A stretch of 64,000 bases of DNA from Bilabrum cf. latius (lineage: Eukaryota), in assembly GCA_965178125.1 (NCBI GenBank), contig OZ237761.1, positions 124,001 to 188,000 on the forward strand. Direction: 5' to 3'. Under the pieces are notes generated by a model. It was given only the letters and a program-made list of their open reading frames with translations, did no database searches and was not told the origin of the DNA. The translations under genes were made by a program, and so were the position numbers. Positions 16,373-58,401 of this stretch are shown here, piece by piece (position 1 is the stretch's first letter; each line of letters begins with the position of its first letter).

Positions 16373-16376
16373 GACC

Positions 16377-17060: not shown

Positions 17061-17205
17061 CAGTTGCATGGGTCGGGTTGATTGCACAGATTGAACAGAC
17101 TGTATTGACTGAATTGATGCCAGCAAATCTTTTAATGTGCTCAGGCGATGGTGCATCTGCCTCCATCTGCGACGAGGATCTAACTCGTACCTGCTCAACA
17201 GCACC

Positions 17206-29791: not shown

Positions 29792-29965
29792 GTCATGGGT
29801 GAACTAGAGATACCAGCTACAAGTGAAATCCTTGGCATAGTGGGAAAGGGGCGCCCACAACTGGATCGGATGGGATGGGATGCCGGGAGGTCGACAGGAG
29901 TTGTGTGATGGTTGGTTGATGGGTATAGATACTTCTAAATCATTGATACGATCTAAGAGTAGCAT

Positions 29966-30238: not shown

Positions 30239-30308
30239 TCTATCAATATATATGATCCATTCTTTATATGGTTTTAAATAGTTTTTATTATTTAAAATCA
30301 ATTTAGGT

Positions 30309-32056: not shown

Positions 32057-32151
32057 CGTTGCTATATCTAAATTGAGAAGTCTTTAAATGGCTTAACATG
32101 GAAAAATGTATTTTAAACCACTTAAAGAAATATTCCTATAGCTATGGTAGA

Positions 32152-36239: not shown

Positions 36240-37420
36240 CAGCCTCAGAGTCTGCACCACGATGTGCTCTGCTCTCACCAGCCTCATAGTCTGCACCACG
36301 ATGTGCTCGGCTCTCACCAGCCGCAGAGTCTGCACCACGATGTGCTCTGCTCTCACCAGCCGCCGGGCCTGCACCACGATGTGCTCTGCTCACAGCAGCC
36401 GCAGAGTCTGCACCACGATGTGCTCTGCTCACACCAGCCGCTGAGTCTGCACCACGATGTGCTCTGCTCTCACCAGCCGCCGGGCCTGCACCACGATGTG
36501 CTCTGCTCACCTTAGCCGCAGAGTCTCCTCGTCGTCATCACCATCAGATACCTCTGCCCGTTTCCCACCGGCGAGCCCTCGTTGAATAGAGCCTACGGCG
36601 TCAACCCTAGTCGCCTCGGCAGAGCTGCCCTATAAGAGGGCAAGACGCACATCCGGAGCGGGAGGAGAGGCAGCTGGCATCTACAGCGAGGCGCGCTGCT
36701 CACAGCAGCCGCCGAGCCTGCACTACGAAATGCTCTGCTCACACCAGCCGCTGAGTCTGCACCACGATGTGCTCTGCTCACACCAGCCGCTGAGTCCGCA
36801 CCACGATGTGCTCTGCTCACAGCAGCCGCAGAGTCTGCACCACGATGTGCTCTGCTCTCACCAGCCTCATAGTCTGCACCACGATGTGCTCTGCTCACAC
36901 CAGCCGCTGAGTCTGCACTACGATGTGCTCTGCTCACAGCAGCCGCAGAGTCTGCACCACGATGTGCTCTGCTCTCACCAGCCTCATAGTCTGCACCACG
37001 ATGTGCTCTGCTCTCACCAGCCGCCGGGCCTGCACCACGATATGCTCTGCTCACCTTAGCCGCAGAGTCTCCTCGTCGTCATCCCCATCAGATACCTCTG
37101 CCTGCTTCCCACCGGCGAGCCCTCGTTGAATAGAGCCTACGGCGTCAACCCTAGTCGCCTCGGCAGAGCTGCCCTAAAGAGGGCAAGACGCACATCCGGA
37201 GCGGGAGGAGAGGCAGCTGGCATCTACAGCGAGGCGCGCTGCTCACAGCAGCCGCCGAGCCTGCACTACGATGTGCTCGGCTCTCACCAGCCGCAGAGTC
37301 TGCACCCCGATGTGCGCTTCTCTCACTAGCCGCCGGGCCTGCACCACGATGTGCTCGGCTCTCACTAGCCGCTGAGTCTGCACCACGATGTGCTCGGCAC
37401 TCACCAGCCGCAGAGTCTGC
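36240..37420 (+). repeat. 39-bp minisatellite clusters (ctgcaccacgatgtgctctgctctcaccagccgcagagt)
   Basis: Tandem units in three clusters, separated by a duplicated ~200-bp spacer. Confidence 0.9.
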
Positions 37421-40150
37421 TGCCCCCTCGTCGTCATCCCCATCAGATACCTCTGCCTGTTTCCCACCGGGGAGCCCTCGTCGAATAGAGCCTACGGCGT
37501 CAACCCCCGAGGCCTCGGCAGATCTGCCCTATAAGAGGGCAGACGCACACCCGGGGCTGAAGGAGAGGCAGCCAATAGGTCTCCCGAGAGTTGATCGGTT
37601 GTACGCAAAGCAGAGCTGGGCGGGGCTCGTAAGTGCCGCACAGCCACCCCAGCGTGGGACCCGCTCGACGGTAGGAGTGTGGGTCCAAGCCCATCTTTCC
37701 CCCTACTGTCGGCTATATCCCTTCTAGGAACGGAGCTGGAAGACGATGACGAAGAAGCATTACCTGAGGCCCCGCCCCGGCCAAGTACTTGTGTCGCGGC
37801 GATGCGGCTGGCCCCACGTCTGGCAGCCAGCGTCGCCTTGGCACGTTCAGCAGCGGAATCTGGCTCACGGGTGTAGGTCACGCTCTCCTGCTTGATCCAG
37901 CTACAACCTCAGCGCTCAACGGTATAACACTGCTGCTACGGAGGCCTCGAGCGCGGCGGCCACCAGCCCCGTCGTGAGTGTGGCCTCCTCTATCACTCCG
38001 GTTTGCGCGTCCTCCAGCTTTACTGCGTGTGCCCGACACGTCAGGCCCGCCGGGCGCCCGCACTCCGTGGGTACCCTAGACAGTCTATGGCAGGCGCACA
38101 CTGGCGTTCTGAAGACCAATCAAGCCCAAGTCGATCTACTAGATGACGCAAAGCGACCCGCCAAGGGCTCGCCAGGCTGACATCCACAGCACGGCGGTCC
38201 GCAGCAGGCGCACGCTGGTGCCATCAAGACCACGTCCTCCCAAGTAAACCCAAGATGGCGCTGCACTCACCAGCCGCAGAGTCTACACCACGATGTGCTC
38301 GGCTCTCACCAGCCGCAGAGTCTGCTGCCCCCTCGTCGTCATCCCCATCAGATACCTCTGCCTGTTTCCCACCGGCGAGCCCTCGTTGAATAGAGCCTAC
38401 GGCGTCAACCCCCGAGGCCCCGGCAGATCTGCCCTATAAGAGGGCAGACGCACATCCGGGGCTGAAGGAGAGGCAGCCAATAGGTCTCCCGAGAGTTGAT
38501 CGGTTGTACGCAAAGCAGAGCTGGGCGGGGCCCGTAAGTGCCGCACAGCCACCCCAGCGTGGGACCCGCTCGACGGTAGGAGTGTGGGTCCAGGCCCATC
38601 TTTCCCCCTACTGTCGGCTATATCCCTTCTAGGAACGGAGCTGGAAGACGATGACGAAGAAGCACTACCTGAGGCCCCGCCCCGGCCAAGTACTTGTGTC
38701 GCGGCGATACGGCTGGCCCCACCTCCGGCAGCCAGCGTCGCCTTGGCACGTTCAGCAGCGGAATCTGGCTCACGGGTGTAGGTCATGCTCTCCTGCTTGA
38801 TCCAGCTACAACCTCAGCGCCCGAGGGTACCCCACTGCTGCCGCTACCGGAGTAGTGGCGCCGGCGACGTCGGAGCACTCTCCCCGCCCACGTCGGCGTC
38901 CCTCCTGAACCGGGCGCTGCTGCCGCCGCTTTCGTTTTTGCGCTATGGAGGATTTCCCCGCTGCGGAAAGCTCGAGGACGGCGGCCACTACATCATTTGC
39001 GAGTATGGCCTCCTCCATCACCACGGTCTGCACGTCCTGCAGCTTGACTGCGCCTTGAGCCCGACACGTCAGGCCCGCCGAGCACCTGCACTCCGTGGGT
39101 GCCCTTCCCACCGGCTCGCCAAGCTGCCCTCCACAGCAAGACAGTCTATGGCAGGCGCACACTGGCGTTCTGAAGACCAATCAAGCCCAAGTCGATCTAC
39201 TAGATGACGCAAAGCGACCCGCCAAGGGCTCGCCAGGCTGACATCCACAGCACGGCGGTCCGCAGCAGGCGCACGCTGGTGCCATCAAGACCACGCCATC
39301 CCAAGTAAACCCAAGATGGCGCTGCACTCACCAGCCGCAGAGTCTACACCACGATGTGCTCGGCTCTCACCAGCCGCAGAGTCTGCTGCCCCCTCGTCGT
39401 CATCCCCATCAGATACCTCTGCCTGTTTCCCACCGGCGAGCCCTCGTTGAATAGAGCCTACGGCGTCAACCCCCGAGGCCCCGGCAGATCTGCCCTATAA
39501 GAGGGCAGACGCACATCCGGGGCTGAAGGAGAGGCAGCCAATAGGTCTCCCGAGAGTTGATCGGTTGTACGCAAAGCAGAGCTGGGCGGGGCCCGTAAGT
39601 GCCGCACAGCCACCCCAGCGTGGGACCCGCTCGACGGTAGGAGTGTGAGTCCAGGCCCATCTTTCCCCCTACTGTCGGCTATATCCCTTCTAGGAACGGA
39701 GCTGGAAGACGATGACGAAGAAGCACTACCTGAGGCCCCGCCCCGGCCAAGTACTTGTGTCGCGGCGATGCGGCTGGCCCCACGTCTGGCAGCCAGCGTC
39801 GCCTTGGGACGTTCAGCAGCGGAATCTGGCGCACGGGTGTAGGTCACGCTCTCCTGCTTGATCCAGCTACAACCTCAGCGCCCGAGGGTACCCCACTGCT
39901 GCCGCTACCGGAGTAGTGGCGCGGCGACGTCGGAGCACTCTCCTTGCGCCACTTCCTGCACCGGGCGCCGCTGCCTCCGCCTTCTCCTGCGCGATTGAGA
40001 AGTTCCACGATGCGGAGAGCTCGAGGCTGGCAGCCACCAGATACTTCACGAGCTGGGCCTCCTCCAGCACTACGGTTTGATGTCCTCCAGCTCTACGGCG
40101 TCCGTGCTCGACACGTCAGGCCCGCCGGGCGCCTACTCCGTGGGTGCCGT
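37400..40150 (+). repeat. Three diverged tandem copies of a ~0.9-1.06 kb block
   Basis: Paralogous track ORFs begin at 37492, 38397 and 39458. Confidence 0.9.
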
Positions 40151-41616
40151 TCGCCTCGGCCACCCGGTGGCTGCCGCCGTATCCACTGCCCCAGTTATTG
40201 CCGCGTTCTGCAGGCTGATGAGGTGCCGCATCGCCGTCATCTGGAGGAGGTCGCACGCTAGCTGCGCACCTGTTGGCGTGCCGTCGAGCATGGTCCACCG
40301 GAACACCCGCACCATCAGTGGCGACTCGTCGCCTTCGGCGGACCGCCCTAGCTTAGGGAAAGAGTCGACCATGGCTGCTACCGCCTGTGGCCGTGGTTTC
40401 GAGCTCATTTCTGTGAAGAGAACTAGAGTGGGAGCCATGCTGACGAGAAAATGATCTCGCCGGCGTTGCTGTGCCTGGTCCGCGGTCTCGCATGACTTAT
40501 ACGCGCATTCCGGTTCCGCTAGTGCTTCCTTGCATCCACAAAAGGTAAGCTTGGCTGCGGCTGCGGCTCCCAGGCCGTCACGGATGCGGCACGAGCCGGG
40601 TCAAAATTTTGCGGTTAACTTCAGATACCCCGGGAACTCGCTACCGGCCGCACTTTGTACGCCCTCCAATAGTTCGTTAATAGTTCAAACCAACATTCGC
40701 ACTAAGAGTGATACGCTAAGCAGGCGAGTACGCATGGCGTTGAGTTGCAGCGTGAGTGTTGGCATTTCGGACCCGTCGGTGGCCAACAGTCGGTAAATTC
40801 CAGAGAATTCGTGGGCACCACCTTTCAACAGAACTCCAGTGCCCAGATCTTTATATCTGTGGCGCTGCGTGTTGCGTCTCAGCCTCCACTCGAGCACTTG
40901 CCTCAAGGGAAGTGCCTCGGGAGCACAAACCAGGACCCGAACGACTCGGAATCAGTCGGGCCTGATCCCAAGTCTTACCTGCATCAAGAGATACTTCGTT
41001 CGGCTTCCTCTTGAATTTTGCATTCATAAATCTACGCAGTCGTGGTAAGTGCTTGACCCATTCCGTGTGTCGCTTCCCCGTCTCGATTTCTTCGAGAACC
41101 ATACGAAAGTTTAGAGCCTTGCCGATGAACTGATTCCATTTCTCCACGATGGCTTGCTGTCTATTAACTATGTCTTGCTGTCTGTGCTGTTCTGACTCCC
41201 CTGTTGTGCTCCTTGACGTACTGTTTGAAATCGTCTTTGAATTCTGATCCGTCATCAACTTGAAACATGAAGGGAAGACTGAGATGTTGCCGGGAGTAGA
41301 TCTTCTTGAGTGCATCCACGATAGTTGACGACTTCTTGTCGGCTACCGGTTCAAAATCTGATGATCTGGTGGCAACATCAACAGCTACAAGCAGATATTT
41401 GTATTTGCCATCATGGGGAAGGAAAAGGAGATCAAGCTGGTGGATACCATCCTGGTTTGAACTGTGATGTGACGGCATATTGAAGCCTTTGTCACGTGTT
41501 GGCTCTCGTGTCATCAAGTGAGTAAAATGTTCAAGACTGGTCTGGCCTTCTTTCTGGCCAATGTTGAAGAATGCGCTATCACTTTGCTTAGCCATTATAC
41601 TATTGTTTCATGTTTT

Positions 41617-41948
41617 TCATACCAAGTTCAAGTACAGTTTGGCGAAATACCTGGTTCGTTCGAAGTTAGCGACAATGTCCTTTGACATCACACTCCATAA
41701 CACATTGGCATCCCAGAAGGTTGAATGGTATGGATCGTTAAGCTCGTCGGACTTGAAGCTAGCAAACTCTCTGTATCGTGTTCTTTCTCGGTTTCCTTTG
41801 ACTGCCATGTACTCAGGATCGTATCTATCGCGGTTTCCGATGACACTATGTTGCCATTGACTGAAACAACGTAGAGGTAGTCGCCATCTGTAAACCTTAT
41901 CAGATCTCCAACCTCGTTTGGTCCTTCTGATATACTTTGTGTTTCCAT
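41617..41948 (-). CDS. Small viral-type hypothetical ORF(s), possibly one frameshifted gene
   Basis: Overlapping ORFs 41688-41948 and 41617-41808 directly upstream of the integrase. Confidence 0.4.
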
Positions 41949-41959
41949 TATATAATAAG

Positions 41960-42304
41960 ATGGCAGAATCAAATGAATTCTCAGCGGTTCAGCAGATGAT
42001 GAGTCAACTGAAGGATGAGGCAAGTGCAGACGGCAAGGAAATCGTCAAACTAGCGCATGAATTCATCAAGGAGGTTGAAGATGGGAGGACAGACCCACTT
42101 GTAGCTACCCCTACTCATAAGGTGGGTGGTTGCTTCAAGGCCCTTGATAGTCGCATGCAGTTGTTCAGAGAGATGCGGAACTTTGCACAGACTTCACTTG
42201 CGGAGTTCGATGAGCACGCCAAAACCACACAGGAGCTCGTTGATAAGCTGTATAAGATGGCTGAGAGCAAAGAGAGATCTGATGACGTTGTTGCGGTGGA
42301 CTGA
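41960..42304 (+). CDS. Small viral-type hypothetical protein
   Basis: ATG lies 11 nt from the divergent ATG at 41948, across TATATAAT; TGA stop. Confidence 0.55.
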   Translation: MAESNEFSAVQQMMSQLKDEASADGKEIVKLAHEFIKEVEDGRTDPLVATPTHKVGGCFKALDSRMQLFREMRNFAQTSLAEFDEHAKTTQELVDKLYKMAESKERSDDVVAVD

Positions 42305-42344
42305 ATTTAAATGTTACATGAGATGTAGCATGTAAATAAAATGT

Positions 42345-42728
42345 TCACCGTTCCCATAGAACCGTTAGGACGTATGTCCCATTCCTTTTCTTCTTTATTT
42401 TGAATCCTTTCAACAACATATTCTCACCCGGATGAATTGCTCCATACACTCTTTCGTATCGTTGATAGAGTAAGTAGGCGAAAGACATTAGTGATAGCAT
42501 TGTTGAGTCGGATACATCCATAGCTACCTTTTCTTGAGTTGGACCCTTGAATACCATTCTTATCCTTGCACCTTCCGGCAACATATGCTTCAGAACCTTG
42601 GTATTTTCTTTGTCGGAAAGAACTTTTCCGATGTCAAGAACCGTATCCATACGCGGGACATCTTCGGTTCGATCGTAGATGATGCCGGTATACTCATAGA
42701 ATAGTTTATTGATGCGTTTCTCTGCCAT
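42345..42728 (-). CDS. Small viral-type hypothetical protein
   Basis: Clean 127-aa ORF with TGA stop. Its upstream motif is restored when 42735-51190 is removed. Confidence 0.6.
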   Translation of the reverse strand: MAEKRINKLFYEYTGIIYDRTEDVPRMDTVLDIGKVLSDKENTKVLKHMLPEGARIRMVFKGPTQEKVAMDVSDSTMLSLMSFAYLLYQRYERVYGAIHPGENMLLKGFKIKKKRNGTYVLTVLWER

Positions 42729-43297
42729 GTTTCTTATACCTAACGCCGGATGGGGTTCGGGTTTGATGCGACGATGGGAGCGCAGGTTGTTGTCGCTGTA
42801 TTGTGTCTGACGGAACCGTTCTGCCAGAATTTCTGCCAGAATTTCTGCCAGTTTCTGCCAGTTTCTGCCAGTTTCTGCCAGTTCCTGCCAGTTCCTGCCA
42901 GAAGAAAAATGCATTGCACGGCTGTTAGAATGGCTACAAGGACATGGCGAAAACTGGATACCAACACTTACTGGTTTTCAAATTTGCTAACTATCGTTCA
43001 TGTTTAGGCAGCGTGCTACAGCTATGCTTGTGTTTTCTGGTATTTAGGGAAGATATGGACTTGTTCGACTGTAAGCTATCGCAAAACCTTCAAGTTGTTT
43101 GTGTTCACTCTTGTCTTAGCGTGTCAACCGCTGACTAATTTTAACTGTTAATCTACGATAATGTAGTAGTAGTTCATGATAAGTAGCACCGGATCTGAAT
43201 ATATATGCCTTCCCTAATACAGATCCTTTTCCCGCATTGAACTCAACTAATTGTTGTACAACAACTACTCAATGGAAACGCCAACCAACAACCGATT

Positions 43298-46200
43298 GCG
43301 AGGTGCAAAGGGGGAGGGAGCCGTGTGCAGTATCGGCGTCATGTCCTCGAGGGCAGTGCGAGCTGGTGCTGTGGGCGACCAGGTGTGAGGTGGGGAGGGG
43401 GGAGGGAGCCATGTGCAGTATCGGCGTCATGTCCTCGAGGGCAGTGCGAGCTGGTGCTGTGGGCGACCGGGTGTGAGGTGGGGAGGGGGACGAGAGCCAT
43501 GTGCAGTATCGGCGTCATGTCCTCGAGGGCAGTGCGAGCTGGTGCTGTGGGCGACCGGGTGTGAGGTGGAGAGGGGGACGAGAGCCGTGTGCAGTATCGG
43601 CGTCATGTCCTCGAGGGCAGTGCGAGCTGGTGCTGTGGGCGACCGGGTGTGAGGTGGAGAGGGGGAGGGAGCCGTGTGCAGTATCGGCGTCATGTCCTCG
43701 AGGGCAGTGCGAGCTGGTGCTGTGGGCGACCGGGTGTGAGGTGGAGAGGGGGAGGGAGCCATGTGCAGTATCGGCGTCATGTCCTCGAGGGCAGTGCGAG
43801 CTGGTGCTGTGGGCGACCGGGTGTGAGGTGGGGAGGGGGAGGGAGCCGTGTGCAGTATCGGCGTCATGTCCTTCAGGGCAGTGCGAGCTCGTGCTGTGGG
43901 CGACCGGGTGTGAGGTGGAGAGGGGGACGAGAGCCGTGTGCAGTATCGGCGTCATGTCCTCGAGGGCAGTGCGAGCTGGTGCTGTGGGCGACCGGGTGTG
44001 AGGTGGAGAGGGGGACGAGAGCCGTGTGCAGTATCGGCGTCATGTCCTCGAGGGCAGTGCGAGCTGGTGCTGTGGGCGACCGGGTGTGAGGTGGAGAGGG
44101 GGGAGGGAGCCGTGTGCAGTATCGGCGTCATGTCCTCGAGGGCAGTGCGAGCTGGTGCTGTGGGCGACCGGGTGTGAGGTGGAGAGGGGGGAGGGAGCCA
44201 TGTGCAGTATCGGCGTCATGTCCTCGAGGGCAGTGCGAGCTGGTGCTGTGGGCGACCGGGTGTGAGGTGGAGAGGGGGGAGGGAGCCATGTGCAGTATCG
44301 GCGTCATGTCCTTCAGGGCAGTGCGAGCTGGTGCTGTGGGCGACCGGGTGTGAGGTGGGGAGGGGGGACGAGAGCCGTGTGCAGTATCGGCGTCATGTCC
44401 TCGAGGGCAGTGCGAGCTGGTGCTGTGGGCGACCGGGTGTGAGGTGGGGAGGGGGACGAGAGCCGTGTGCAGTATCGGCGTCATGTCCTCGAGGGCAGTG
44501 CGAGCTGGTGCTGTGGGCGACCGGGTGTGAGGTGGAGAGGGGGGAGGGAGCCGTGTGCAGTATCGGCGTCATGTCCTCGAGGGCAGTGCGAGCTGGTGCT
44601 GTGGGCGACCGGGTGTGAGGTGGAGAGGGGGGAGGGAGCCGTGTGCAGTATCGGCGTCATGTCCTCGAGGGCAGTGCGAGCTGGTGCTGTGGGCGACCGG
44701 GTGTGAGGTGGAGAGGGGGAGGGAGCCGTGTGCAGTATCGGCGTCATGTCCTCGAGGGCAGTGCGAGCTGGTGCTGTGGGCGACCGGGTGTGAGGTGGAG
44801 AGGGGGGAGGGAGCCGTGTGCAGTATCGGCGTCATGTCCTCGAGGGCAGTGCGAGCTGGTGCTGTGGGCGACCGGGTGTGAGGTGGGGAGGGGGGAGGGA
44901 GCCGTGTGCAGTATCGGCGTCATGTCCTCGAGGGCAGTGCGAGCTGGTGCTGTGGGCGACCGGGTGTGAGGTGGAGAGGGGGGAGGGAGCCATGTGCAGT
45001 ATCGGCGTCATGTCCTCGAGGGCAGTGCGAGCTGGTGCTGTGGGCGACCGGGTGTGAGGTGGAGAGGGGGGAGGGAGCCATGTGCAGTATCGGCGTCATG
45101 TCCTCGAGGGCAGTGCGAGCTGGTGCTGTGGGCGACCGGGTGTGAGGTGGAGAGGGGGGAGGGAGCCATGTGCAGTATCGGCGTCATGTCCTCGAGGGCA
45201 GTGCGAGCTGGTGCTGTGGGCGACCGGGTGTGAGGTGGAGAGGGGGACGAGAGCCGTGTGTAGTATCGGCGTCATGTCCTCGAGGGCAGTGCGAGCTGGT
45301 GCTGTGGGCGACCGGGTGTGAGGTGGAGAGGGGGGAGGGAGCCATGTGCAGTATCGGCGTCATGTCCTCGAGGGCAGTGCGAGCTGGTGCTGTGGGCGAC
45401 CGGGTGTGAGGTGGAGAGGGGGGAGGGAGCCGTGTGCAGTATCGGCGTCATGTCCTCGAGGGCAGTGCGAGCTGGTGCTGTGGGCGACCGGGTGTGAGGT
45501 GGAGAGGGGGAGGGAGCCGTGTACAGTATCGGCGTCATGTCCTCGAGGGCAGTGCGAGCTGGTGCTGTGGGCGACCGGGTGTGAGGTGGGGAGGGGGGAG
45601 GGAGCCGTGTACAGTATCGGCGTCATGTCCTCCAGGGCAGTGCGAGCTGGTGCTGTGGGCGACCGGGTGTGAGGTGGAGAGGGGGAGGGAGCCGTGTGCA
45701 GTATCGGCGTCATGTCCTCGAGTGCAGTGCGAGCTGGTGCTGTGGGCGACCGGGTGTGAGGTGGAGAGGGGGGAGGGAGCCATGTGCAGTATCGGCGTCA
45801 TGTCCTTCAGGGCAGTGCGAGCTGGTGCTGTGGGCGACCGGGTGTGAGGTGGAGAGGGGGAGGGAGCCATGTGCAGTATCGGCGTCATGTCCTCGAGTGC
45901 AGTGCGAGCTGGTGCTGTGGGCGACCGGGTGTGAGGTGGAGAGGGGGGAGGGAGCCATGTGCAGTATCGGCGTCATGTCCTCGAGTGCAGTGCGAGCTGG
46001 TGCTGTGGGCGACCGGGTGTGAGGTGGAGAGGGGGGAGGGAGCCATGTGCAGTATCGGCGTCATGTCCTCGAGTGCAGTGCGAGCTGGTGCTGTGGGCGA
46101 CCGGGTGTGAGGTGGAGAGGGGGGAGGGAGCCATGTGCAGTATCGGCGTCATGTCCTCGAGGGCAGTGCGAGCTGGTGCTGTGGGCGACCGGGTGTGAGG

Positions 46201-48240
46201 TGGGGAGGGGGGAGGGAGCCGTGTGCAGTATCGGCGTCATGTCCTCGAGGGCAGTGCGAGCTGGTGCTGTGGGCGACCGGGTGTGAGGTGGAGAGGGGGG
46301 AGGGAGCCATGTGCAGTATCGGCGTCATGTCCTCGAGGGCAGTGCGAGCTGGTGCTGTGGGCGACCGGGTGTGAGGTGGGGAGGGGGGAGGGAGCCGTGT
46401 GCAGTATCGGCGTCATGTCCTCGAGGGCAGTGCGAGCTGGTGCTGTGGGCGACCGGGTGTGAGGTGGAGAGGGGGGAGGGAGCCATGTGCAGTATCGGCG
46501 TCATGTCCTCGAGGGCAGTGCAAGCTGGTGCTGTGGGCGACCGGGTGTGAGGTGGAGAGGGGGAGGGAGCCATGTGCAGTATCGGCGTCATGTCCTCGAG
46601 GGCAGTGCGAGCTGGTGCTGTGGGCGACCGGGTGTGAGGTGGGGAGGGGGGAGGGAGCCGTGTACAGTATCGGCGTCATGTCCTCGAGGGCAGTGCGAGC
46701 TGGTGCTGTGGGCGACCGGGTGTGAGGTGGAGAGGGGGGAGGGAGCCATGTGCAGTATCGGCGTCATGTCCTCGAGGGCAGTGCGAGCTGGTGCTGTGGG
46801 CGACCGGGTGTGAGGTGGAGAGGGGGGAGGGAGCCATGTGCAGTATCGGCGTCATGTCCTCGAGGGCAGTGCGAGCTGGTGCTGTGGGCGACCGGGTGTG
46901 AGGTGGAGAGGGGGGAGGGAGCCATGTGCAGTATCGGCGTCATGTCCTCGAGGGCAGTGCGAGCTGGTGCTGTGGGCGACCGGGTGTGAGGTGGGGAGGG
47001 GGACGAGAGCCGTGTGTAGTATCGGCGTCATGTCCTCGAGGGCAGTGCGAGCTGGTGCTGTGGGCGACCGGGTGTGAGGTGGAGAGGGGGACGAGAGCCG
47101 TGTGTAGTATCGGCGTCATGTCCTCCAGGGCAGTGCGAGCTGGTGCTGTGGGCGACCGGGTGTGAGGTGTGGAGGGGGGAGGGAGCCGTGTGCAGTATCG
47201 GCGTCATGTCCTCGAGGGCAGTGCGAGCTGGTGCTGTGGGCGACCGGGTGTGAGGTGGAGAGGGGGGAGGGAGCCATGTGCAGTATCGGCGTCATGTCCT
47301 CGAGGGCAGTGCGAGCTGGTGCTGTGGGCGACCGGGTGTGAGGTGGAGAGGGGGGAGGGAGCCATGTGCAGTATCGGCGTCATGTCCTCGAGGGCAGTGC
47401 GAGCTGGTGCTGTGGGCGACCGGGTGTGAGGTGGAGAGGGGGGAGGGAGCCGTGTGCAGTATCGGCGTCATGTCCTCGAGGGCAGTGCGAGCTGGTGCTG
47501 TGGGTGACCGGGTGTGAGGTGGGGAGGGGGGAGGGAGCCATGTGCAGTATCGGCGTCATGTCCTCGAGGGCAGTGCGAGCTGGTGCTGTGGGCGACCGGG
47601 TGTGAGGTGGAGAGGGGGGAGGGAGCCGTGTGCAGTATCGGCGTCATGTCCTCGAGGGCAGTGCGAGCTGGTGCTGTGGGCGACCGGGTGTGAGGTGGAG
47701 AGGGGGGAGGGAGCCATGTGCAGTATCGGCGTCATGTCCTCGAGGGCAGTGCGAGCTGGTGCTGTGGGCGACCGGGTGTGAGGTGGAGAGGGGGGAGGGA
47801 GCCGTGTGCAGTATCGGCGTCATGTCCTCGAGGGCAGTGCGAGCTGGTGCTGTGGCTGGCCGGGTGTGAGGTGGAGAGGGGGGAGGGAGCCGTGTGCAGT
47901 ATCGGCGTCATGTCCTCGAGGGCAGTGCGAGCTGGTGCTGTGGGCGACCGGGTGTGAGGTGGAGAGGGGGAGGGAGCCGTGTACAGTATCGGCGTCATGT
48001 CCTCGAGGGCAGTGCGAGCTGGTGCTGTGGGCGACCGGGTGTGAGGTGGAGAGGGGGACGAGAGCCGTGTGCAGTATCGGCGTCATGTCCTCGAGAGCAG
48101 TGCGAGCTGGTGCTGTGGGCGACCGGGTGTGAGGTGGAGAGGGGGACAAGAGCCGTGTGCAGTATCGGCGTCATGTCCTCGAGGGCAGTGCGAGCTGGTG
48201 CTGTGGGCGACCGGGTGTGAGGTGGAGAGGGGGAGGGAGG
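43298..48240 (+). repeat. 87-88 bp G-rich satellite, about 56 tandem copies
   Basis: Unit gtgtgaggtggagaggggggagggagccatgtgcagtatcggcgtcatgtcctcgagggcagtgcgagctggtgctgtgggcgaccgg, with no unique spacers. Confidence 0.97.
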
Positions 48241-50142
48241 GCTTGCGATATATTTAGATTGATGTTGGGTTTGTAATATTTCATTACTTGTTTTTTTTGC
48301 CACTTGAGTTGCTTATTCGTGTATTGTTATCTTGTGGATCACTTGTTTTGTTTATCGTGATCTGATGGATCCTGATTGCTTTGCGCATATTAGCCGCTCG
48401 TTTAGACAATGTCTAGCACCACTTGTTTCTCGATTCCAATTCGCCTCCGCTGTAGTATCATGCATTGTACAAGGCTGGACGTCGCCACCTGAGATTCTTC
48501 TATCCGATCCTATGGATCGGATAGGCCTACGACGAGCCTACTCGTCTCGCTTGAACTGCTCTGATGCGCTGCCACTGGGCCGCATCCTAGAGTTGAACTT
48601 AGACCTAGGCTTGAGATCAGATTTGTTCCTTAAACCACAGCTAGCACGTGCAGGTCTTGGCCGACCTTCCCCTGCGCCTCGTCTACCCACCTGCCTGTTG
48701 GCCACCTGTGCGCTGCTTACCATGCAGCCCGCTACCACTCGCGTATCCCTTGTGCCTGGCGCCTGGGGCCCCATTCCTCCCGTTGTGTTCTACCTATTGA
48801 CACCGCACTATCCTCGCCTGTGCCTGCCTCGTCTTCCAGCTCATCTCTGCTCCCCGTCGCTTCAATCCTAATGTCCGAGTAAACATGATATCATTGGCTG
48901 CCTCCATCTTTGAACGTTGCGTTCCGAGAGGTCGCCCTCCTGCAATCCATTGATACTACAGTTATCTATAGACCCCAAGGGCTTAGTATCGGGCAATTTA
49001 CATGACTCAGGATGGGGATTCAGTATCGACTATCCATGATTGCAGGTTGTAACGCAGGTGGCTGGGTATCTGTCGTTGTCAACTATCCTCTTGAAATCCG
49101 CTCTACGCCCACCCGCACTAGTGCCTTGCTGCGCGCGTGAACCTACAAGATAAAGGACTAGACGGTGCATGGAGCGGAATAGGACGCCTCCGAGTATGCA
49201 CCAAACGGCAACCCAGCGCGTCTGCCCACTTCTATGATCGCGATTGAATCTACATCAGCTGGCCACCCCGGAGCTCCACCATGTTGCCGATTCCCAGAAC
49301 TACCCCCATGGCATCAAGTCTACTTACGCATCGCTCGGTAGGCACTGAACTGATTTCCCTTGCTTGAGAGGCTTCCGCAATCACCTTGGATTGGGCAAAC
49401 ACGCACACTGAAGCAGATGTCCTTCTTGGGTGCAAGACTACTGCTAGACCTCGACGCCAACATACACTGTATGATAGGTGCTAGCTTTACCTGCTTGCGA
49501 CAGTACATTTCTTCGTATGATTTGCGCGGAGTGTATGGAGAGCAAACCGCTCAACAGCAACACACACTCCAGATACTGACCATCCCACAACAGCGGCATA
49601 TGCGGTCGTCAATTGATGTTTATTAGTAATTAAAGTATTCTCTTGTAGTATGAGGATGAAGTGCTCGCAGAATTTGTCAGACCTGGCATCTTGTCAGCAG
49701 CTCGATACATCCAGCATCATCAAACAGACTATCTGCCCAGACCTGACCGCTTTGAATACAGCAATATGGTATGTACTAATAAGTGAAGCAGTTCAAGCTG
49801 TTTTGGTTAGACTTGCACTCAGCACTGTGTCAGCAGCTGGGCGCTCACGTGCTGCGGGAGAATTTGTGCTTTCGTCAATACTGGCCCCATGTATCGCCCT
49901 TGAGGGCATGTACCCGCAGCAGTGTCTTTTATTTTAGTATTTAAAGTGAATCATGTCCATCGCTGTGCAATATATGGTGTGTCTGACCACAAGTATTTCT
50001 GGCTGTACTGGCTGTCATTGACTATTTCTGGCCAGAAAAGTCCTGCCAGAATTCTGGCAGCTCTTGGCAAGAACTGGCAGAAACTGGCAGAATTTGGCAG
50101 ATTTTCGTTGGTATTATCCAGTCACAATACGTTACAAACAGA

Positions 50143-51190
50143 GGTAGCCATGTCTCCCAGTTTGTTCCGGTATAGGGTCGGTCGCAACCGTGATCGACGC
50201 GCACCGGATTTATGTGTTGCAGCTCTCTCTGTGTTCAGGAGAGGGACGGAGTTTGGGTTAACTCGTTTTGTGGGCAGCAGCAGCGGTCCTCCCAGCCCCG
50301 ACGGCTGCAGGTGCATCGGCGAGGCAGTTGGCGCTCAGCTGCCCCAAGCAAGGGCCGGTTTTCGTGGTAGGGCAGCGGCCGCTGCTCAAGGCCACTGTCG
50401 TCCGCGTGCTCCGTGGCTACTGCCAGCTCGGCGAGGCCGAAGCGGTGCACGGCCACTCCATCCGCATCGCTGCAGTGATGTGCCTGGACCGAGCAGGCGT
50501 CGTCGCCTTCGAGACTATCAGGCGATTCGGGCGGTGGAAGTCAGCTTCTTCGTGTGAGGTATACCTACGTTCAGCCAGAGAGGGCCTTCCCCCTCTTGAG
50601 CTCCGTGGGTCAGATCTCTAGTTGAAGCAGCCAGCATGGGTGCTGGCGCGCGCCCTTCTGCTCGCGGTGACGTGATTCACTCGGGCAGAGGCGTTCAAGA
50701 CATGGCACTGAAAGAATTGGCGGAGTGGTGCAGTGGCTCAGCTCGGACCTGGTGAACAGGCCCAGAGCAGCGCCAGCCTGCACAGCTTTGTCAAGGACTT
50801 GCCATGTCTGATTGATTGGGAGACTAGTTTGCGCTATCATCACGAGCATCATATACCTAACGCCGGATGGGGTTCGGGTTTGATGCGACGATGGGAGCGC
50901 AGGTAGCCATGTCTCCCAGTTTGTTCCGGTATAGGGTCGGTCGCAACCGTGATCGACGCGCACCGGATTTATGTGTTGCAGCTCTCTCTGTGTTCAGGAG
51001 AGGGACGGAGTTTGGGTTAACTCGTTTTCCCACCCTCCCAGTTCCCCCTCCTCCTCGGCGGAGTGGTGCAGTGGCTCAGCTCGGACCTGGATGAACAGGC
51101 CCAGAGCAGCGCCAGCCTGCACAGCTTTGTCAAGGACTTGCCATGTCTGATTGATTGGGAGACTAGTTTGCGCTATCATCACGAGCATCA
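50143..51190 (+). mobile_element. Third, miniature YR retroelement with split direct repeats and a YR C-terminal remnant
   Basis: A1 50143-50268 equals A2 50901-51027. B1 ~50719-50902, B2 from ~51057. Remnant GHSIR...FGRWKS...VY. Confidence 0.82.
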
Positions 51191-51601
51191 GCTCAGTAAT
51201 ATCGGCTATCCTTTAAATGGGTTTAAATAGGTTTGCCTATTTAAAGAAAAGGAGAAGACGCGCGGGTTTTCAGTCGGTTCTGATGCTGGAGTGGCTCGCG
51301 TATGGCCCTTCGTCCGGTTTGTCGTACGTCTTGCCCTCCCCTCTGACTCAACGTCGGTGTGGCTCGTCTTGTGTCCTTTTGATGGTGGCGCATTGGACCG
51401 CCACACCTTCAGTTTTTTTCCTTTTTGTAGAATTTCCCTATATTTTTATTTTTTTTCGAATGTGGCGTTCCAATGTTCCATTAGTAGGCTGTGTTACTTT
51501 TTCCTCAAATTTGACCAAAAAGAAATGTTCCAATATTCCAATTTCTAAAAATAGTTCAAAAATTTGAAAGTATATAGCCCTGAAAACAGTCCCTAACGTT
51601 A

Positions 51602-54600
51602 GATTCCTACCACTGGTGTAGTGGAGCTTTAGCGGAACGAGGGTGTCCTGGCGACATCGCCGACGTAGTCTTGGGGGGGGAGGGAGTGCTGGATCAGATC
51701 AAAACAAAATGGGACTTCAAGGATGTACCAGGCGAGTTGTACAGTATAACAGGTGGTGCCGATCTTGCAGGTATGTCTCGCGATCACCAGGCTGCTTTTG
51801 TGCACGGAATAGCAGCCGCAGTTGGCTCCAACGGATCATGGGTAATCACAGGAGGCTCGGACGCCGGAATCATGCAGCTTGCTGGAAAAGCACATTTTGA
51901 TGCAGCATTATATTCACCGTGCATTGGAATCGCAGCATTAGGCAAGGTGTTCAATACTTCCAAGGAGATCCGACAAGTCGATAAAGGCGGCGAGACTCCT
52001 ATATAGTATAAACTCTCTGAGCCCCCTTTCAGGGGTGCTACCAAGGAGGAACACAAAACCCGACTGAACCCTGATCACACGCATTTCATTTTTGTTCGAC
52101 CTCCTGTAGGACGAAAAATATCGAAGTGGGGGGACGACAACAATTTTCGCGAGGCCCTCGAAGGGGAGATCGCAAAGACCGCCTTCACGGTGCAGGTGGT
52201 CGCAAGCGGGGGCCCCGAGACCATGAAGACCGTGTCCAGCGCGGCCCATGCCAAAATCCCGATCGTGCTTTTCAAGGGATCTGGGCGAGCCTCTGACGTC
52301 CTCTGCAAACTGAGTGCCCATGCTGAGCATTTGAGCGAGTTGGACGACTCGTGCCCCCGCGGCTGGTGCCCGGATGGCGCCAAGCACACTGCAGCATTGA
52401 TGGGCAAAGATCACTATCAATACCCAAATGTCAACGTTTTCGATCCGATGAGCATCGAGGTCTGGAAAACAACGAAGCCACTCACTGCGTGCATCCCTGG
52501 CAAAGTGCTACAATGGATGGCGACGAGGTCAAATCCACCAAATCTCGACGATTTCGACAAATACTGTGCCAACGGGTGGGGAGCATGGACAACTACCAGC
52601 AGGACGTATGAAGATTGGCTGGACAGGCATGTGCGGTCGCGGCCAGTTGCTGCTAGATCTGGCAACGGTCAAGCGGCAGACGGGCAAGCGGCAGGCGGGC
52701 AAGCGGCAGGCGGGCAAGCGGCAGACGGGCAAGCGGCAGGTGGGCAAGCGGCAGGCGGGCAAGAACCAGGCGGACATCGGCATCTAACCAATTCAGATAT
52801 CGAGAATCTTTGGTGCTGGTGCGTGCATATACACCTCCTGCACATGGGTGCGATCCTTCGAGTCAAGCGTAGGGGCGATGAAGCAACGGGTACGTGGAAT
52901 TCACCGCGGCGAAGCAGTATCACCCACCGCGTTATGTCGAGAGCTGCAAGCACCCCTAGTGCTCCTTCGGGGCACTACTCAAGCATTCGCATCACGCCCG
53001 ACATGAACGACGACAGTCTCAAGGTCAGGGACACGGTGCGCGAATCCCTTGTCGCAATTGCCTTCGATAGCCCGCTTCGACGAAGGTCGGATGACCAGCT
53101 CAGGCCAAAGTTTGCGAAGGCATGGCCCCTCCTCATGAGAGGCATGCAAGCCGTGCGACTTGGCACCTTAGTGACTGTCGACCTGTCTCTGGTGTCATCT
53201 TCGTTCGTCAGATCGATGTCTTCTCATGGGCCGGCACCAAGCCCATCCGATGGTCTCGGGGGTTCAGATCTGCAAGAGCTTTGTCGCGTCTTATTGCAAG
53301 AAGGTGCTGCCACTGCTGCAAATGGTGACAATCCGATAGGCCAGCATCGACCGGCATCTCAAGTGCAGCCTTGCGAGGCACACCGACTTCCTGCGACTGT
53401 AGAGTTGCTACTGCAGTGCAAGCAGCCATTAACTTTGCAGGAGGCCATGGCAAGAGCGGCGTTGATTGGCAAGGCAATGAACCCACCACAATCAGGTAGA
53501 GTTGGACAGGGGAGCGGTGCAGCATCCGCCCCCCGGCCAAGCCCATTCGAGATGGCCGTCCGATGGAACTGTTCGGAAACGATTCGGGCTTGGTTGCGCG
53601 GAACACTGCAGACGACTAGCAGCTCCTCGAAGATGGATCCGGGTGCTTTGCTCGTTATTCAACTCGGCTTAATCGATGCTACTTTGCGCGATGCTGGTGC
53701 AGTAGTAGCTTGCATTCTGCAAGAGTGTACAGAATTCATGGAGGTGCTTTATATGGTCGACAACCATTGCCTTCAGTAGCTGGCATCACCGAATGGTGCA
53801 CCTCAGGGCGAATCACCTACCAGGGAGCGGAGCAACACAATGTGCAGGGATGATTGGAAGCAGCTCATTTCGCAACGCAAGTGGGAAGAATGGCTCCCAA
53901 GCATCAATACATCACACTTCTCCTGCTTGGAGTCAACAGCTTGGAGTATGCACTCTGCTGACGAAGCAAAGGAATCGGTTCGGTTGTTGTGGGCTCTGGT
54001 GAATCGCAAGTTCAGCGTCGCTCGTGTCTTCTGGAGGTACTGCTCCGAGCCTCTGCGGATGGCTCTGTACGCGGCACAGGTTCTGCGGAAGCTAGCAGGC
54101 ACGGATGATGCAGCGCGCACCATGCTGCTGAGTGAAGCGGACTGGTACGAACGGCTTGGTATATAGGTGCTCGAGCACGGTGGTACTAGCAGGGACTTCC
54201 GTGGGTGGGACAAAAAGGATCGGCAGAACGTTTCACTGTGGCTTAGGTCCACAGCACCGAGGTCTCAAGTGATATGCGATGCCATTCTTTAGTAGTACTC
54301 GGTGTCAAAACACATCGAGCATGGTAGGTGCTGTTGGAACATGTGTTGGTCTTGCTGTCGGGATATGCCGTCTTGCTGTCAGAGTTGTTTCTGCTGTCGG
54401 GATGGCCTGACTTAGGTGACCCGCCTCCACCGCGGCTCAAACATCATCCGATTGGCTCAACGCTCTGAGTCAATGGAGTTTATGGGCCATCCGGTGGTGC
54501 AGAGGCAGCTGCGATGTCTTTGGCGACACAACACTTGGGAGAAGCCATCGGGGGGACTGACCACAGTATGGGGATGCTGCCGAGTATGGGACTGCTGTGC

Positions 54601-55705
54601 AAGCTAGGACTATTCTGCTAGGAACAACTGGTTTAATGCACCACGCACACGGTGCTGGTTGCATTCGATTTCTCGGGTTGCCCTCACTATCCTTCATGCT
54701 TGGGTGGTTCTTCAACACTACGATGAGCCGCGAGCTCGGCTATTTCTTCCCATTCTCTTCTTCGTATGGAAGGGCCTGCAGCTTGTGGAGGACAGCCTAG
54801 TTGCTGCTAGGCTGGGCATCCACGACATCTCCGTGTGGGATGCGCTTGGTACTCTTGATTACGCGGCAATGTTTGTAAGCCTAGGGCTGTTCACGGCTGC
54901 TGGCATTGGTGACGATGGTATCTTGCACGACTATTCGATGGATGTGCTTAGCGTCTCGTTCATTGTGGCGTGCATCCGTCTGCTGGACATCCTCGCAGTC
55001 ATAGAGTTCTTTGGCCCGATGGTTATCACCATCAATCGGATTCTCTTTCTGGATATCACGCTGTTCCTTGTCCTCCTGGTAGTATTCGTGGGAGGGTTCG
55101 CAGTCACGATCACGGCGATCTTCGTTGTTAGGAATCCAGACGCAGGGAACGGTGGGGATTTTTCGGGTCTGGAAGACTTGCTATGGTCCATGTTCGGGGA
55201 TTGGACCCTACCGCTGTCGAACGCAGACAGAAATGAGCACGGCAGTGACTTCTACCTCGGTCTTGGCAAGGCTCTGCTGGGTCTACACATGCTGCTGTCC
55301 ACCATCGTGATTGTGAACTTGCTCGTGGCCCTGATGACCTCCTCGTACGAGAACACGCACAGAGGCGCCCAGCTCCGGTTTAACTTCTCTATGGCGCTGC
55401 ATGTGCGCAAGCACCGTCTCCTGTCTGCTCTACCTGCTCCACTCAATCTGGTTGGTTGGATAGTTGGTAGGTCATGCTGGGAATACGGTTGCAGTTAGAA
55501 CACTGAAGAAGCAGAGGTGGATGCATCAAGTGGTGGTCCATCCATCAGTTGGAACTAGGTCTCTCTCGAGACAGGGCAGCAGCTACCTGTCATGCGGGCC
55601 CTCAAGGAAGATGAGAAAACCAAGGTCAGGTTCACGAGGTATCGAGCCTAGCGGAGGCTTGTGGCGAGACTAGAGGCAGAGGAGAAGAGACAGGAGACCC
55701 TGTGA
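51602..55705 (+). CDS. TRPM-like cation channel with N-terminal SLOG domain, copy 2; 10 in-frame TAGs; 5' end unresolved
   Basis: One frame with no TAA or TGA from 51584 to 55702. SLOG motifs SITGGA, WVITGG.DAGIM, CIGIA, LNPDHTHFIFV, GSGRASD, followed by the TM region as in copy 1. Confidence 0.9.
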
Positions 55706-56466
55706 GTCCATCCGAGGCGCGCCAGGCAGTCATGCGGGCGGAAATCAGCAGGGCCAAGCCAGCTGCATTTCAGGCGTAAGACCACTGCGGCAATTGGATG
55801 ATCGCGCGTGCCCAGCACTCCCCGCACGTCTTCCTCGGTCGGAGCTGGCGGGTCGTCGCACACCGCATCTGTCCAGCCTTTAGTACGCGTTTGATGCCCC
55901 CGAAGTCCGCCGCACCTGGATTGGCCTGGTAGTGCAGATTTTCGGTGGAGCAAGCATGGTGACCTAGACCTGGCAAGTTCACTTGCACATCAGGATTGAA
56001 GGGACGAGAGCGGCTGTAATCCGGACGTGGAGGTGGGCACCGACAGCAAGAGAGATTGGAGAGATGAGGCTCGTTAAGGATGGGGACCAGGGGACACCGG
56101 CACAGGCGACGATAGTGCGGTGTCAATGAAAGGAAACAAGGAAACAACGGAAGGGGACTTTGGGTACAAGGCACATCTGAATTCCGGATGGGAGACAGGT
56201 GGCATTCTCAGAGGCATCGGGCGTAGCCTATACAGCCAGCATCCCAGATTGAGCGGAGCAGATTGACCCAACAGGCAATGGTACCTAGTTACGGGTATTA
56301 CGTGAATTGAGCAAGTGAAGAAGATGCATTTTTTGCTATGTCAGCTATACCCAATCCGATCTGGGTTACAACGTTATTGCGTAAAGGGCAAGGTAAGAAT
56401 CACTCTTTTTATAGCATGCCCCCCCCCCCCCCCCCCCCTCCGCCTGCCAGCCCTCAAGTAGACTTA

Positions 56467-58401
56467 TCAGGAATCCGGATCATGCGCGGTACTTGGCCTG
56501 ACCGTGGGCCAGCAGGCACACAGGTAGCCTCTTTGCACGAGACTGTTGCTGCCCACGTCTGGCTTCATTGATTCGCCTCCGCCAGCACTCTTTCTGCTGG
56601 CATCCGTCGAAGACTTCCTCAGCTCGAATTCGATGCGGGCCACGGTCCATTGCACTCCCCCCGACCCCGCCTGCACACTACACGAAGGCTCCTTTACCTG
56701 CTTCTTTGGCTTGCTCGGCGTGTCACTTTCAATACTGACCTCTTTGCCAGACTCGTCGCCAACTTCGAGCTCATCTACTCCTCCACTTTTTCCATCGCCA
56801 TTTGCAGACAGTATGCCGTCCAGCACGTGTCGTCCCACGGCTGCCCCGCGACGCATTGATTCCTCGACAGCCTCCATGGCTTGCTGCAGGCTGGGGACAG
56901 CGAGCATGCGATGCTCGCCATGTGCTCCCTAAGCCCTATTGTTCTGAGCACCGTCATCACTGCCATTGCCACCAGATCTGCTAGCACCATCCGATGACGC
57001 CGCCGAGTTCCCGCCACCTGTGGGCCCCTCCGCGGTCCACTGCGTGGCACTCCCCTCCTAGGCGCACTCGTCATCCGCAAGTTGAGCCAGGGCGAGCGCC
57101 TCCTCTCCCTCGGACCAGCGGGTCACCACCAGCTCCAGGGCACGGCCAAGGACGGCCGGCCGCCGGAACATGGTGCCGAACTGCACCACGGGTGCGGGCG
57201 CGGTGCCTCTCGACGCCATGTTGCGGCGCCACTGCGGCTTCCCCGTGCCCATCGAATCTACCCTCACAGTGCGATGCAGCCGGTCAAGCATTGCTCCGAT
57301 CAGGTGAGGCATGGCCAGGTCCGCGGCAGCCACGCCGTGCGAAATGGCGCCCCGCTGTCCCATGAGCGGAGCGAGCCAGCTGGACGTGTGGATGGGATTA
57401 TAGTCACCGCATAGCTTGGCGTATCGCCGGCCCATGTCTAGCGGAGGTTTGATGGTCGCGATAGTTTCCTCTAGGCACTTGCTCAAGCTTGTGCTCGCCT
57501 GCTCGGTCGAGGCTGGCTGACCAAACCTGTCGCGGCCACTGCCTTCCGGTTCTGGGTCAACCGAAGCGCCCTTCTTGGTTGAAAATGCACCCCTCTCGTT
57601 CGATTCGGCTCGTTTGCTTGCAGTGCTAGCATTAGATGGCGCCGACGACACCCGATCAGCGCGTGCTGGCTGCTCCTTTGGCCCAGTCTTGTTCGATCTC
57701 GAATGGAAGAAAAGGAGACGCGTGCTGCTAGCAAAAACAATGTGCTCAGCTCTTGACTTGTTCGCGCTATCGCTGGTAGCTTTTGGCGTCACGGTCGTGT
57801 TGGCGACGGCAGAGAGGATCGAGCCCCGCTTGTGGAACTTTGGCTTGGTCGCACCGACCGAGATCTGAAGGGGCGACGTGGCTGAAACTGATCCGTCCAA
57901 TGGGTGCGCAATCGCAACGCAGTGCATTCCAAGCTTTACGCTTCCCAGCAGTGGAAACTATACCATTGGGGAGCACAGCAAGCCTACCATAGCGCGCTAA
58001 GTAGCAACATCAAGCAAAAGAAGCGGACAGCCCCCATTTCGATCGCTCTGTGAGCTAGCGCCAGAATATCGTGGCGATACTGATTGCTGCCGTAGCTTTT
58101 CCAGGCAACGCTTTGCCTTACACGTCGGTACTACATCATTGGCTTGAAACTACTGATCAGGCGGGACAGGTGCTAACCTATTTGCAACCCCTGCAAGACC
58201 CCAAGAGCGCAAAATCGAAACAAGAAATGGAAGCACTATTGAACTTTGGGCCTCTCGGACAAAGCTGCCTCCGCCGCCGTAGAGGAGTTGCCGAGATTTA
58301 ATTCCAGGGTTGGGCCAAAAGCACGCCAGCAAACCCGCGAACGCCAGGCACAAACACGTTGTACCTATGGAGATATACAGTACGTCTTGCTCATCATACA
58401 T
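56467..58401 (-). CDS. MaoC-like (hot-dog fold) dehydratase with N-terminal hydrophobic segment; 5 TAGs; start 58401 or 58506
   Basis: Track ORFs 58150-58506, 57058-57927 and 56467-56907 are in frame and broken only by TAG. Motifs YAKLCGDYNPIH and ISHG; TGA stop. Confidence 0.8.

Follow-up and report, generated by a model that had tools for sequence, protein, structure and literature searches.

Ngaro, PAT and VIPER elements share split direct repeats arranged as A1-internal region-B1-A2-B2 (PMC8547959, PMC4157794, PMC13465315; all literature cited here is represented by excerpts). In retroelements with a tyrosine recombinase (YR), the two ends of the element, when joined, give the sequence of the internal B1|A2 joint (PMC8547959, PMC4157794, PMC7192593). 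In Cafeteria burkhardae, roughly a quarter of the endogenous mavirus-like virophages (EMALEs) are interrupted by Ngaro elements, which have a high GC content, a length of about 6 kb and the organization A1-[ORFs]-B1A2B2, with open reading frames (ORFs) between the outer repeats (Hackl et al. 2021, PMC8547959). For Halocafeteria, insertions of MULE (Mutator-like element) and LINE (long interspersed nuclear element) type have been described, and Ngaro is stated to be absent (2026 preprint, 10.64898/2026.07.28.741278). Here we analyse 64,000 nt of DNA from Bilabrum cf. latius (assembly GCA_965178125.1, contig OZ237761.1, positions 124,001 to 188,000), hereafter called the window. At 42735-51190 it contains an 8.46-kb insert, which is probably a degenerate, non-autonomous YR retroelement of the DIRS order, Ngaro-like by architecture, situated in the 5' leader of a polinton-like virus gene. 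For Cafeteria, Ngaro elements in endogenous virophages are already published, and the insert adds to this known kind.

Terminal repeats of the insert

The insert starts with a 53-mer, T1 (42735-42787, plus strand), whose only other exact copy in the window is T2 (50852-50904), as established both by direct reading and by script. T2 is directly preceded by a 133-nt block, H1 (50719-50851), with an intact joint at 50851|50852. A second version of this block, H2 (51057-51190), resembles H1 at 99.3% over 134 aligned columns with one 1-nt indel; it ends exactly at 51190, and beyond it lies unrelated sequence of lower GC. When H2 is joined to T1, the internal H1|T2 joint is reproduced with neither gap nor overlap. 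A 53-nt exact match that starts from precisely the correct base is far beyond chance. The original prediction, made from the letters of the window, had described the insert as exactly permuted, with 51190 continuing at 42735, and the identity of T1 and T2 (53/53) together with the reconstituted joint bears this out. Its claim of integration without a target-site duplication (TSD) holds as well, as the flanks of the insertion site (...GTTTCT and GCTCAG...) are not duplicated on either side.

A third repeat, C, had been overlooked: 50142-50269 equals 50901-51028 (128 nt, 100%). Once a nested unit (42788-50141, see below) is set aside, alignment of units leaves a mini element of 1.1 kb, in which T-C-[449 nt]-H is followed in tandem by T-C-[28 nt]-H. 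Written in the usual A/B terms, the mini element reads A1 (T+C) - internal - B1 (H) - A2 (T+C) - 28 nt - B2 (H). All its parts are read on the plus strand. A1 starts with T1, the last 4 nt of which (AGGT, 42784-42787) are the left copy of a duplication around the nested unit, and resumes with C1 (50142-50269; AGGT plus 124 nt, identical to C2). B1 is H1, ending at the internal B1|A2 joint. A2 (T2 plus C2, 50852-51028) is unbroken and consists of exact repeat copies. It is separated from B2 by a pyrimidine-rich 28-nt spacer (51029-51056), at the position where the first unit has 449 nt with a YR remnant. B2 is H2, a repeat copy that forms the 3' end of the element and whose joint is carried by contigs. 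Split repeats are thus present, with sizes of 53-181 nt and 134 nt. The spacer was also considered as a polypurine tract; this was dropped, since it is pyrimidine-rich on the coding strand.

Evidence from contigs of public runs

Contigs of public sequencing runs, and contigs only, were compared with 48300-53000 at 90% likeness; all contig figures in this text are among the matches listed. Four runs of one study (X9-X12, 3 samples) contain 0.84-0.88 of the sequence words of this region. Runs X1-X8, with 0.05-0.06 of the words, were left out of the contig comparison.

The right joint of the insert, 51190|51191, is carried by 554-nt contigs (51161-51714, 0 differences) in X9, X10 and X11. These contigs start at the first junction-specific word, with 30 letters on the element side, which is one short of the bridging rule. 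They run unbroken into the flank, and among them 51191 therefore has no alternative left neighbour. The contig listed for X12 starts at 51214.

The outermost blocks were also met in other contexts. The end of H (50851) is followed by other sequence in at least two contigs of X10, and the start of T (50852) is preceded by other sequence, through a joint 48875->50852, in X9 and X10. These observations, from few matches among the contigs of one study, would fit a family with constant termini. Earlier, a circle had been proposed to have opened inside B; the break is more probably a terminus of the family, since H end and T start occur in other contexts. What stands of the proposed circle integration is the end structure, which is what recombination of a closed circle at a single fixed point would give. 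Sporadic extrachromosomal circular DNA (eccDNA) as its cause is not supported.

Summed word depth of C2-H2 is 2286, 765, 2391 and 2179 in the four runs, compared to 42, 10, 111 and 75 in the viral flank, a 20-50x difference that is not a copy number. All contigs mapped differ from the window at three positions (49066 G>A, 49726 A>G and 3 nt fewer at 50498); the window probably has a variant that only a minority of several copies carry there, or else contains small assembly errors. Further to the right, contigs of all four runs break at 51685-51714. Depth of the 51161-51714 contig amounts to 0.57-0.70 of that of the next one (51685-52575), and in X11 this neighbouring contig has 8 differences, the first none. 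The viral block may thus end on the right at 51685-51714 and be present on only one haplotype.

Could an assembler have joined a repeat-rich block into a virus that is in fact uninterrupted? The region is repeat-rich, contigs disagree with the window at 49066, 49726 and 50498 (3-nt indel), and run support covers the right junction only. Yet both junctions are exactly complementary, while virus and insert share no sequence that would mislead an assembler. Moreover, junction words 51161-51191 are found in contigs of three runs from two samples, unbroken to 51714. We therefore regard an assembly artefact as extremely improbable.

Remnant of a tyrosine recombinase

A YR pseudogene comprising the C-terminal third of the protein was located by tblastn at 50262-50669 (plus strand). 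The remnant aligns with residues 242-362 of P0001, a 362-aa YR, at 91% identity (E 2e-65); residues 1-241 are missing, and an in-frame stop occupies 50619-50621. Identity to four other proteins (P0003-P0006) is 42-54%, and homology continues past the in-frame stop to 50669. With 50346-50618 as query, a search of 1.84 billion representative proteins yielded 11 matches at E <= 0.001. P0009 and P0010 were set aside as YR relatives because they are TPR (tetratricopeptide repeat) proteins. The 9 YR relatives looked up by cluster are metagenome or read-assembly proteins only.

The C-terminal part of Phage_integrase was found in six of nine matches scanned with Pfam, the curated cut-off being reached by P0011 only; the Pfam scan of the window fragment itself gave no match. 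Alignment of the family reveals R166, K205, H306, R309, W332 and Y341 as invariant. The remnant keeps the H-x-x-R motif, the tryptophan and the tyrosine, and the region of R and K is missing. A family pattern search confirmed none of 31 pattern matches in viral contigs and none of 597 in metagenome contigs. The remnant lies directly upstream of B1, with A2 following from 50852; the internal repeats are thus downstream of YR. We also considered C as part of the YR reading frame, owing to weak likeness of its end to residues before 242 of P0001, but tblastn did not support this.

Contigs of X9 and X10 have a 28-letter loose end before 50270 that, by eye, encodes the part of P0001 immediately ahead of residue 245. 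The samples therefore contain longer YR genes, and C1 and YR of the window apparently meet at a deletion joint. All contigs listed over 50270-50614 are without the extra codon that the window has at 50498, in which they agree with P0001; they thus represent other, majority copies.

Related elements in the window

Self-comparison of the window revealed two further blocks with permuted end repeats within 25 kb. The first (18909-25391, plus strand) encodes a reverse transcriptase (RT), RNase H and YR, and has an extra AB unit on its left (18909-19592), which is comparable to the "solo AB repeats" of PMC8547959. In its ORF 21910-23622, RT is marked by YVDD and RNase H by a Pfam match (E 8e-5). At 23553-24737 there is a full-length YR that belongs to the same family as the remnant and is broken by 4 stops (28% identity to P0001 over 394 columns, E 4e-20). 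The RNase H match extends to about residue 538 of this ORF and YR homology begins at 23553; a methyltransferase domain would not fit between them, and the element fits Ngaro better than PAT. Lack of such a domain sets Ngaro apart from both DIRS1 and PAT. PAT-like elements (Pat1, Toc3, Kangaroo of Volvox) have split direct repeats and YR in common with the elements of the window, but they carry a methyltransferase-like domain between RNase H and YR, whereas the YR here comes directly after RNase H; further, Kangaroo has an inverted YR, whereas YR and RT of the window are co-oriented (PMC4157794). The dinucleotide CA is present at both ends of 18909-25391 and once only at internal joints. Such short shared bases at the ends are the pattern that literature gives for the YR class (PMC7192593). 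PDB sequence search and NCBIfam gave no match for the RT ORF and the YR. Just inside the left repeats of 18909-25391, 147 nt of its RT gene recur in inverted orientation (19665-19811 = 22927-22781, 100%).

The second block (34396-40979, minus strand) is non-coding and has the layout A1-int-B1-A2-169 nt-B2. Its repeats are 34396-34551, similar to 34875-35028, and 34721-34878, identical to 40822-40979; long internal tandem repeats extend over about 36.0-40.2 kb. It splits a viral integrase gene into the rve core (41164-41595) and the chromodomain end (33958-34395). The IMG/VR viral contig L001, rated 91% complete, crosses this site with 15 nt between aligned blocks, compared to 6.59 kb in the window. 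As L001 is without the element, insertion of 34396-40979 is shown by an external empty site. TACC is present at both borders, which are therefore ambiguous by 4 nt. The frame as in L001 is restored by removing 6,584 nt, not 6,580 nt (one TACC kept); the integrase is frameshifted elsewhere anyway.

These relatives bear on the possibility that the insert is a YR-only DNA transposon, Crypton-like or of a new YR class, which moves as a double-stranded circle without reverse transcription and has split repeats as a family peculiarity. There is no trace of RT in this copy. P0001-P0006 are stand-alone YR proteins of 256-421 aa, and their look-alikes in a protein atlas are eukaryotic proteins of 325-355 aa, with Phage_integrase in only 12% of one cluster. 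Cryptons share with the insert YR-mediated insertion from a presumed circle and lack of a true TSD. However, stand-alone predicted proteins are to be expected from Ngaros too, where YR is a separate ORF, and the only complete element of the YR family that was seen (18909-25391) has RT/RNase H directly upstream of YR. In the excerpt of PMC13465315, Cryptons have target microhomology repeats of 4-6 bp and no split direct repeats; the insert is opposite on both counts, with a full split repeat and 0 shared bases. Such a transposon is thus an unlikely explanation.

The interrupted viral element

The host of the insert is an integrated polinton-like viral element. Its left part (25392-34395) contains pPolB in two overlapping ORFs (30309-32056, minus strand; Pfam DNA_pol_B_2, E 3.6e-9), a D5-like primase gene (32098-33926, plus strand; Pfam D5_N, 1.8e-4) and the chromodomain end of the integrase (33958-34395, minus strand; Pfam Chromo, 1.9e-5). 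Its middle part (40980-42734) comprises the rve core of the integrase (minus strand; Pfam rve, E 9e-9), ORF 41960-42304 (plus strand) and a gene for a 127-aa protein (42345-42728, minus strand), and is collinear with L001 160-1801. Altogether, collinearity with L001 extends from 42337 to 30003 of the window, and the pPolB proteins are 87% identical. Relative to L001, the integrase ORF 40980-41948 (minus strand) changes frame near 41165. Together with the division of pPolB into two ORFs, this means that decay of the viral element goes beyond the insertions.

The viral ORFs scanned gave no match to a capsid family, and a search for viral terminal inverted repeats (TIRs) detected no inverted repeat linking 51191-53100 with 11000-30000. 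In comparison with the Cafeteria virophages, the host element has pPolB together with a D5-like primase, and we do not class it as a virophage.

The insert separates the 127-aa gene from a promoter-like motif. With up to 3 mismatches allowed, a 19-mer at 51211-51229 (minus strand) is matched 3 times in the window, compared to 0.01 expected. Related sites, at 30262 (minus), 32083 (minus) and 32109 (plus), lie 23, 25 and 24 nt upstream of in-frame ATGs, behind which are a conserved small ORF (29966-30388), pPolB (31202-32056) and the D5-like gene (32098-33234). At two of the three sites a nearer ATG is present but opens only a tiny ORF. Counted across the insert, the motif is 20 + 6 = 26 nt from the ATG of the 127-aa gene at 42728; in the window as it stands, the distance is 8.48 kb. 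The spacing noted in the original prediction is thereby confirmed, and insertion in the 5' leader has parted this gene from its promoter-like motif. The motif occurs in two copies (51212-51224 and 51222-51234, minus strand), with a similar plus-strand word just beyond. With the insert present, it points into the antisense strand of H2.

Further searches around the insertion site were negative within their scope. The 127-aa protein has no Pfam family, no IMG/VR relative and no match at near lengths in a search of 5.8 billion proteins; it is not similar to the end ORF of L001, which ends before this gene with an unrelated ORF. No further IMG/VR locus was found for ORF 41960-42304, and the exact 24-nt pattern of the left flank had 0 matches in metagenome contigs. 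Comparison of 51191-53033 with L001 gave only a 56-nt match (74%) at another promoter-like site and no homologue of the flank. Neither Rfam at gathering threshold on 18000-53500 nor a tRNA scan gave a match; accordingly, there is no RNA-gene target.

Nested transposon and satellite DNA

Most of the insert belongs to a nested element of 7,354 nt (42788-50141). When the left end of the interior is aligned with the reverse-complemented right end, imperfect TIRs of about 26 nt become apparent. Next to them, at 42819-42901 and about 50027-50106, a 10-nt unit that includes CTGCCAG is repeated in inverted subterminal arrays. The element is bracketed by AGGT at 42784-42787 and 50142-50145, i.e. by a duplication of 4 bp, or of 5 bp with one mismatch. 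In A2, T2 passes into C2 through a single AGGT (50897-50911), and A2 thus offers a paralogous empty site. With TIRs, AGGT on both sides and an empty site kept in A2, 42788-50141 is a separate insertion in A1.

The nested element contains an 88-bp satellite at 43310-48239 (56 copies, 96% matches by Tandem Repeats Finder), which is G-rich on the plus strand, with GC of 0.67 and GC skew of +0.44 to +0.47. This 4.9-kb satellite is cargo of the nested element. None of the ORFs of the nested region (48308-48871, 49354-49626, 49617-49937, 49904-50557) matched a Pfam family, hence no transposase was seen in them, and the element is non-autonomous. A contig loose end before 50065 is the reverse complement of about 42897-42925, the inner flank of the left arm. 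In the unique part 48839-50042, contig depth is about 2-3x that of the viral flank, where depth is not a copy number. Both observations fit further copies of the nested element elsewhere.

The nested part may be akin to foldback, or long-TIR, non-autonomous DNA transposons. Features in common are TIRs followed by short subterminal arrays, a short flanking duplication, non-coding content and tandem-repeat cargo. No transposase was seen, and a duplication of this length (4 bp, or 5 bp if one mismatch is allowed) is not diagnostic of any superfamily.

Within the nested element, 48771-48927 stands out by summed contig depth of 1351 to 7383, compared to about 40-220 nearby. Many different continuations occur behind 48880-48883, and a conserved, different sequence occurs before 48769. 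This segment looks like the 3' end, about 110 nt long, of a high-copy element. A 29-nt piece of it recurs at 56099-56127 and 3058-3113.

Position of the satellite also bears on the circle of the original prediction, which was to consist of satellite, flanks and a mini YR element. The mini YR element is there, and the satellite resides in a separately bounded TIR element. An 8.46-kb circle therefore need never have existed, and the 1.1-kb mini element may have inserted first. The same evidence speaks to sporadic eccDNA, made of satellite and neighbouring DNA, broken at random and pasted into the virus by host end joining. Satellites are a common source of eccDNA, the insert is mostly satellite, and neither TSD nor microhomology is seen at either junction. 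A random break is nevertheless hard to reconcile with one placed exactly at a repeat-pair joint that is a terminus elsewhere (loose ends behind 50851, joint 48875->50852), with a YR remnant adjoining it. Two more elements of the same architecture lie within 25 kb, and the satellite has its own boundaries, marked by TIRs and a 4-bp duplication. We consider such an origin very unlikely.

Other repeats of the window

A direct duplication links 1-3671 and 53034-56701 (98.3% over 3.68 kb). It begins at window base 1 and may extend further left, covers host genes including an ion-channel-like ORF (54869-55498), and could be a segmental duplication or two haplotypes in series. Inverted repeats of 92% identity (3668-4285 with 14174-13565, 4300-4418 with 11774-11650) bracket about 10 kb, including a kilobase of low GC (12-13 kb, GC 0.41). 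ORFs tested between them matched no Pfam family.

Classification and model of insertion

The insert has the A1-int-B1-A2-B2 arrangement with an internal joint equal to the joined ends, repeats downstream of YR and no TSD, all of which agree with a DIRS-order element. RT and RNase H, both present in the sibling 18909-25391, are missing from this copy. It is therefore filed as a degenerate, non-autonomous derivative and not as a complete member.

Among described systems, the Ngaros of Cafeteria EMALEs come closest and share with it the A1-[internal]-B1A2B2 layout and YR as last gene just upstream of B1 (PMC8547959). In both cases, too, a GC-rich insert resides in a lower-GC integrated virus of the polinton/virophage realm, with several insertions per virus (PMC8547959). 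In contrast to Cafeteria Ngaros, the insert is without gag, RT/RNase H and two thirds of YR; its A2 and B2 are 28 nt apart, and a 7.35-kb TIR element that includes the 4.9-kb satellite is nested in it. This likeness is by published description, not by sequence, and the YR family is known only from metagenome and read-assembly proteins. Retroelements nested in polinton-like viruses (PLVs) of cryptophytes and ochrophytes are, as here, GC-rich, 4-9.5 kb long and flanked by direct repeats, and interrupt PLV genes or spacers (PMC12220804). They are described there via RT domains, some with rve integrase, and the YR split-repeat type is not described in the excerpt of that paper.

Several points weigh against this classification. 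No remnant of RT, RNase H or gag was found in 42735-51190, and the label of retroelement comes from architecture and from a sibling with a YR of only 28-32% identity. For full-length P0001-type YRs, viral and metagenome contigs were scanned without result, and their DNA context was not seen. The 28 nt between A2 and B2, and C1 adjoining the YR remnant at an apparent deletion joint, indicate a rearranged copy. Target and H|T joint share 0 bases in this insert; a few are described in PMC7192593, and the other two elements show 2 and 4. No uninterrupted 42734|51191 site was found in the searches made. Junction support from runs covers the right joint only, not 42734|42735, and the runs in question may be source data of the window and thus not independent.

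In the model proposed for DIRS-1, ends are restored and joined on the internal template, and YR then integrates a double-stranded circle (PMC7192593). A few bases shared between circle joint and target are described in the same paper, which found mostly linear single-stranded cDNA; the DIRS-1 circle stays a model. Following this literature, ends B2 and A1 of the present element would be joined into a circle, with the joint specified by the internal B1|A2 region. The YR of the element would then recombine the circle joint with the target, which would not be duplicated. Such recombination would explain both the exact continuation of 51190 at 42735 and the missing TSD. With no RT and a truncated, stop-containing YR, the copy is unable to move alone. 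If it moved as it is, enzymes of longer family members of the same genome would have acted in trans; alternatively, its interior may have been lost after insertion. The foldback-type transposon inside A1 could have entered either before or after arrival of the YR element.

A bolder scenario is that the whole 8.46-kb composite was mobilised in trans and moved as a unit, YR circles thereby spreading satellites and transposons, and that the three split-repeat elements reflect active targeting of integrated polinton-like viruses. We put it forward tentatively and consider it rather doubtful.

Conclusions

Ends of an insert that appear circularly permuted and lack a TSD should be read first as the split direct repeat of a YR element, and only afterwards as eccDNA. 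One small viral element has here received two split-repeat insertions, one in the integrase gene and one between promoter and gene, with a third element alongside. This locus provides a second setting for the case of Ngaros in endogenous virophages, namely a polinton-like element with pPolB and rve integrase, together with a YR family that is known only from metagenome and read-assembly proteins. The nested satellite-bearing transposon is a testable case of cargo inside a YR element. If the composite did move as a unit, circles of YR elements would carry satellite arrays and further transposons to new sites. A preference of such elements for integrated viruses, if it exists, would make their insertion a recurrent way of disabling these viruses or of hitch-hiking on them. 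Targeting of polinton-like viruses, if true, would extend the relationship between Ngaros and virophages in Cafeteria to another type of virus and another host.

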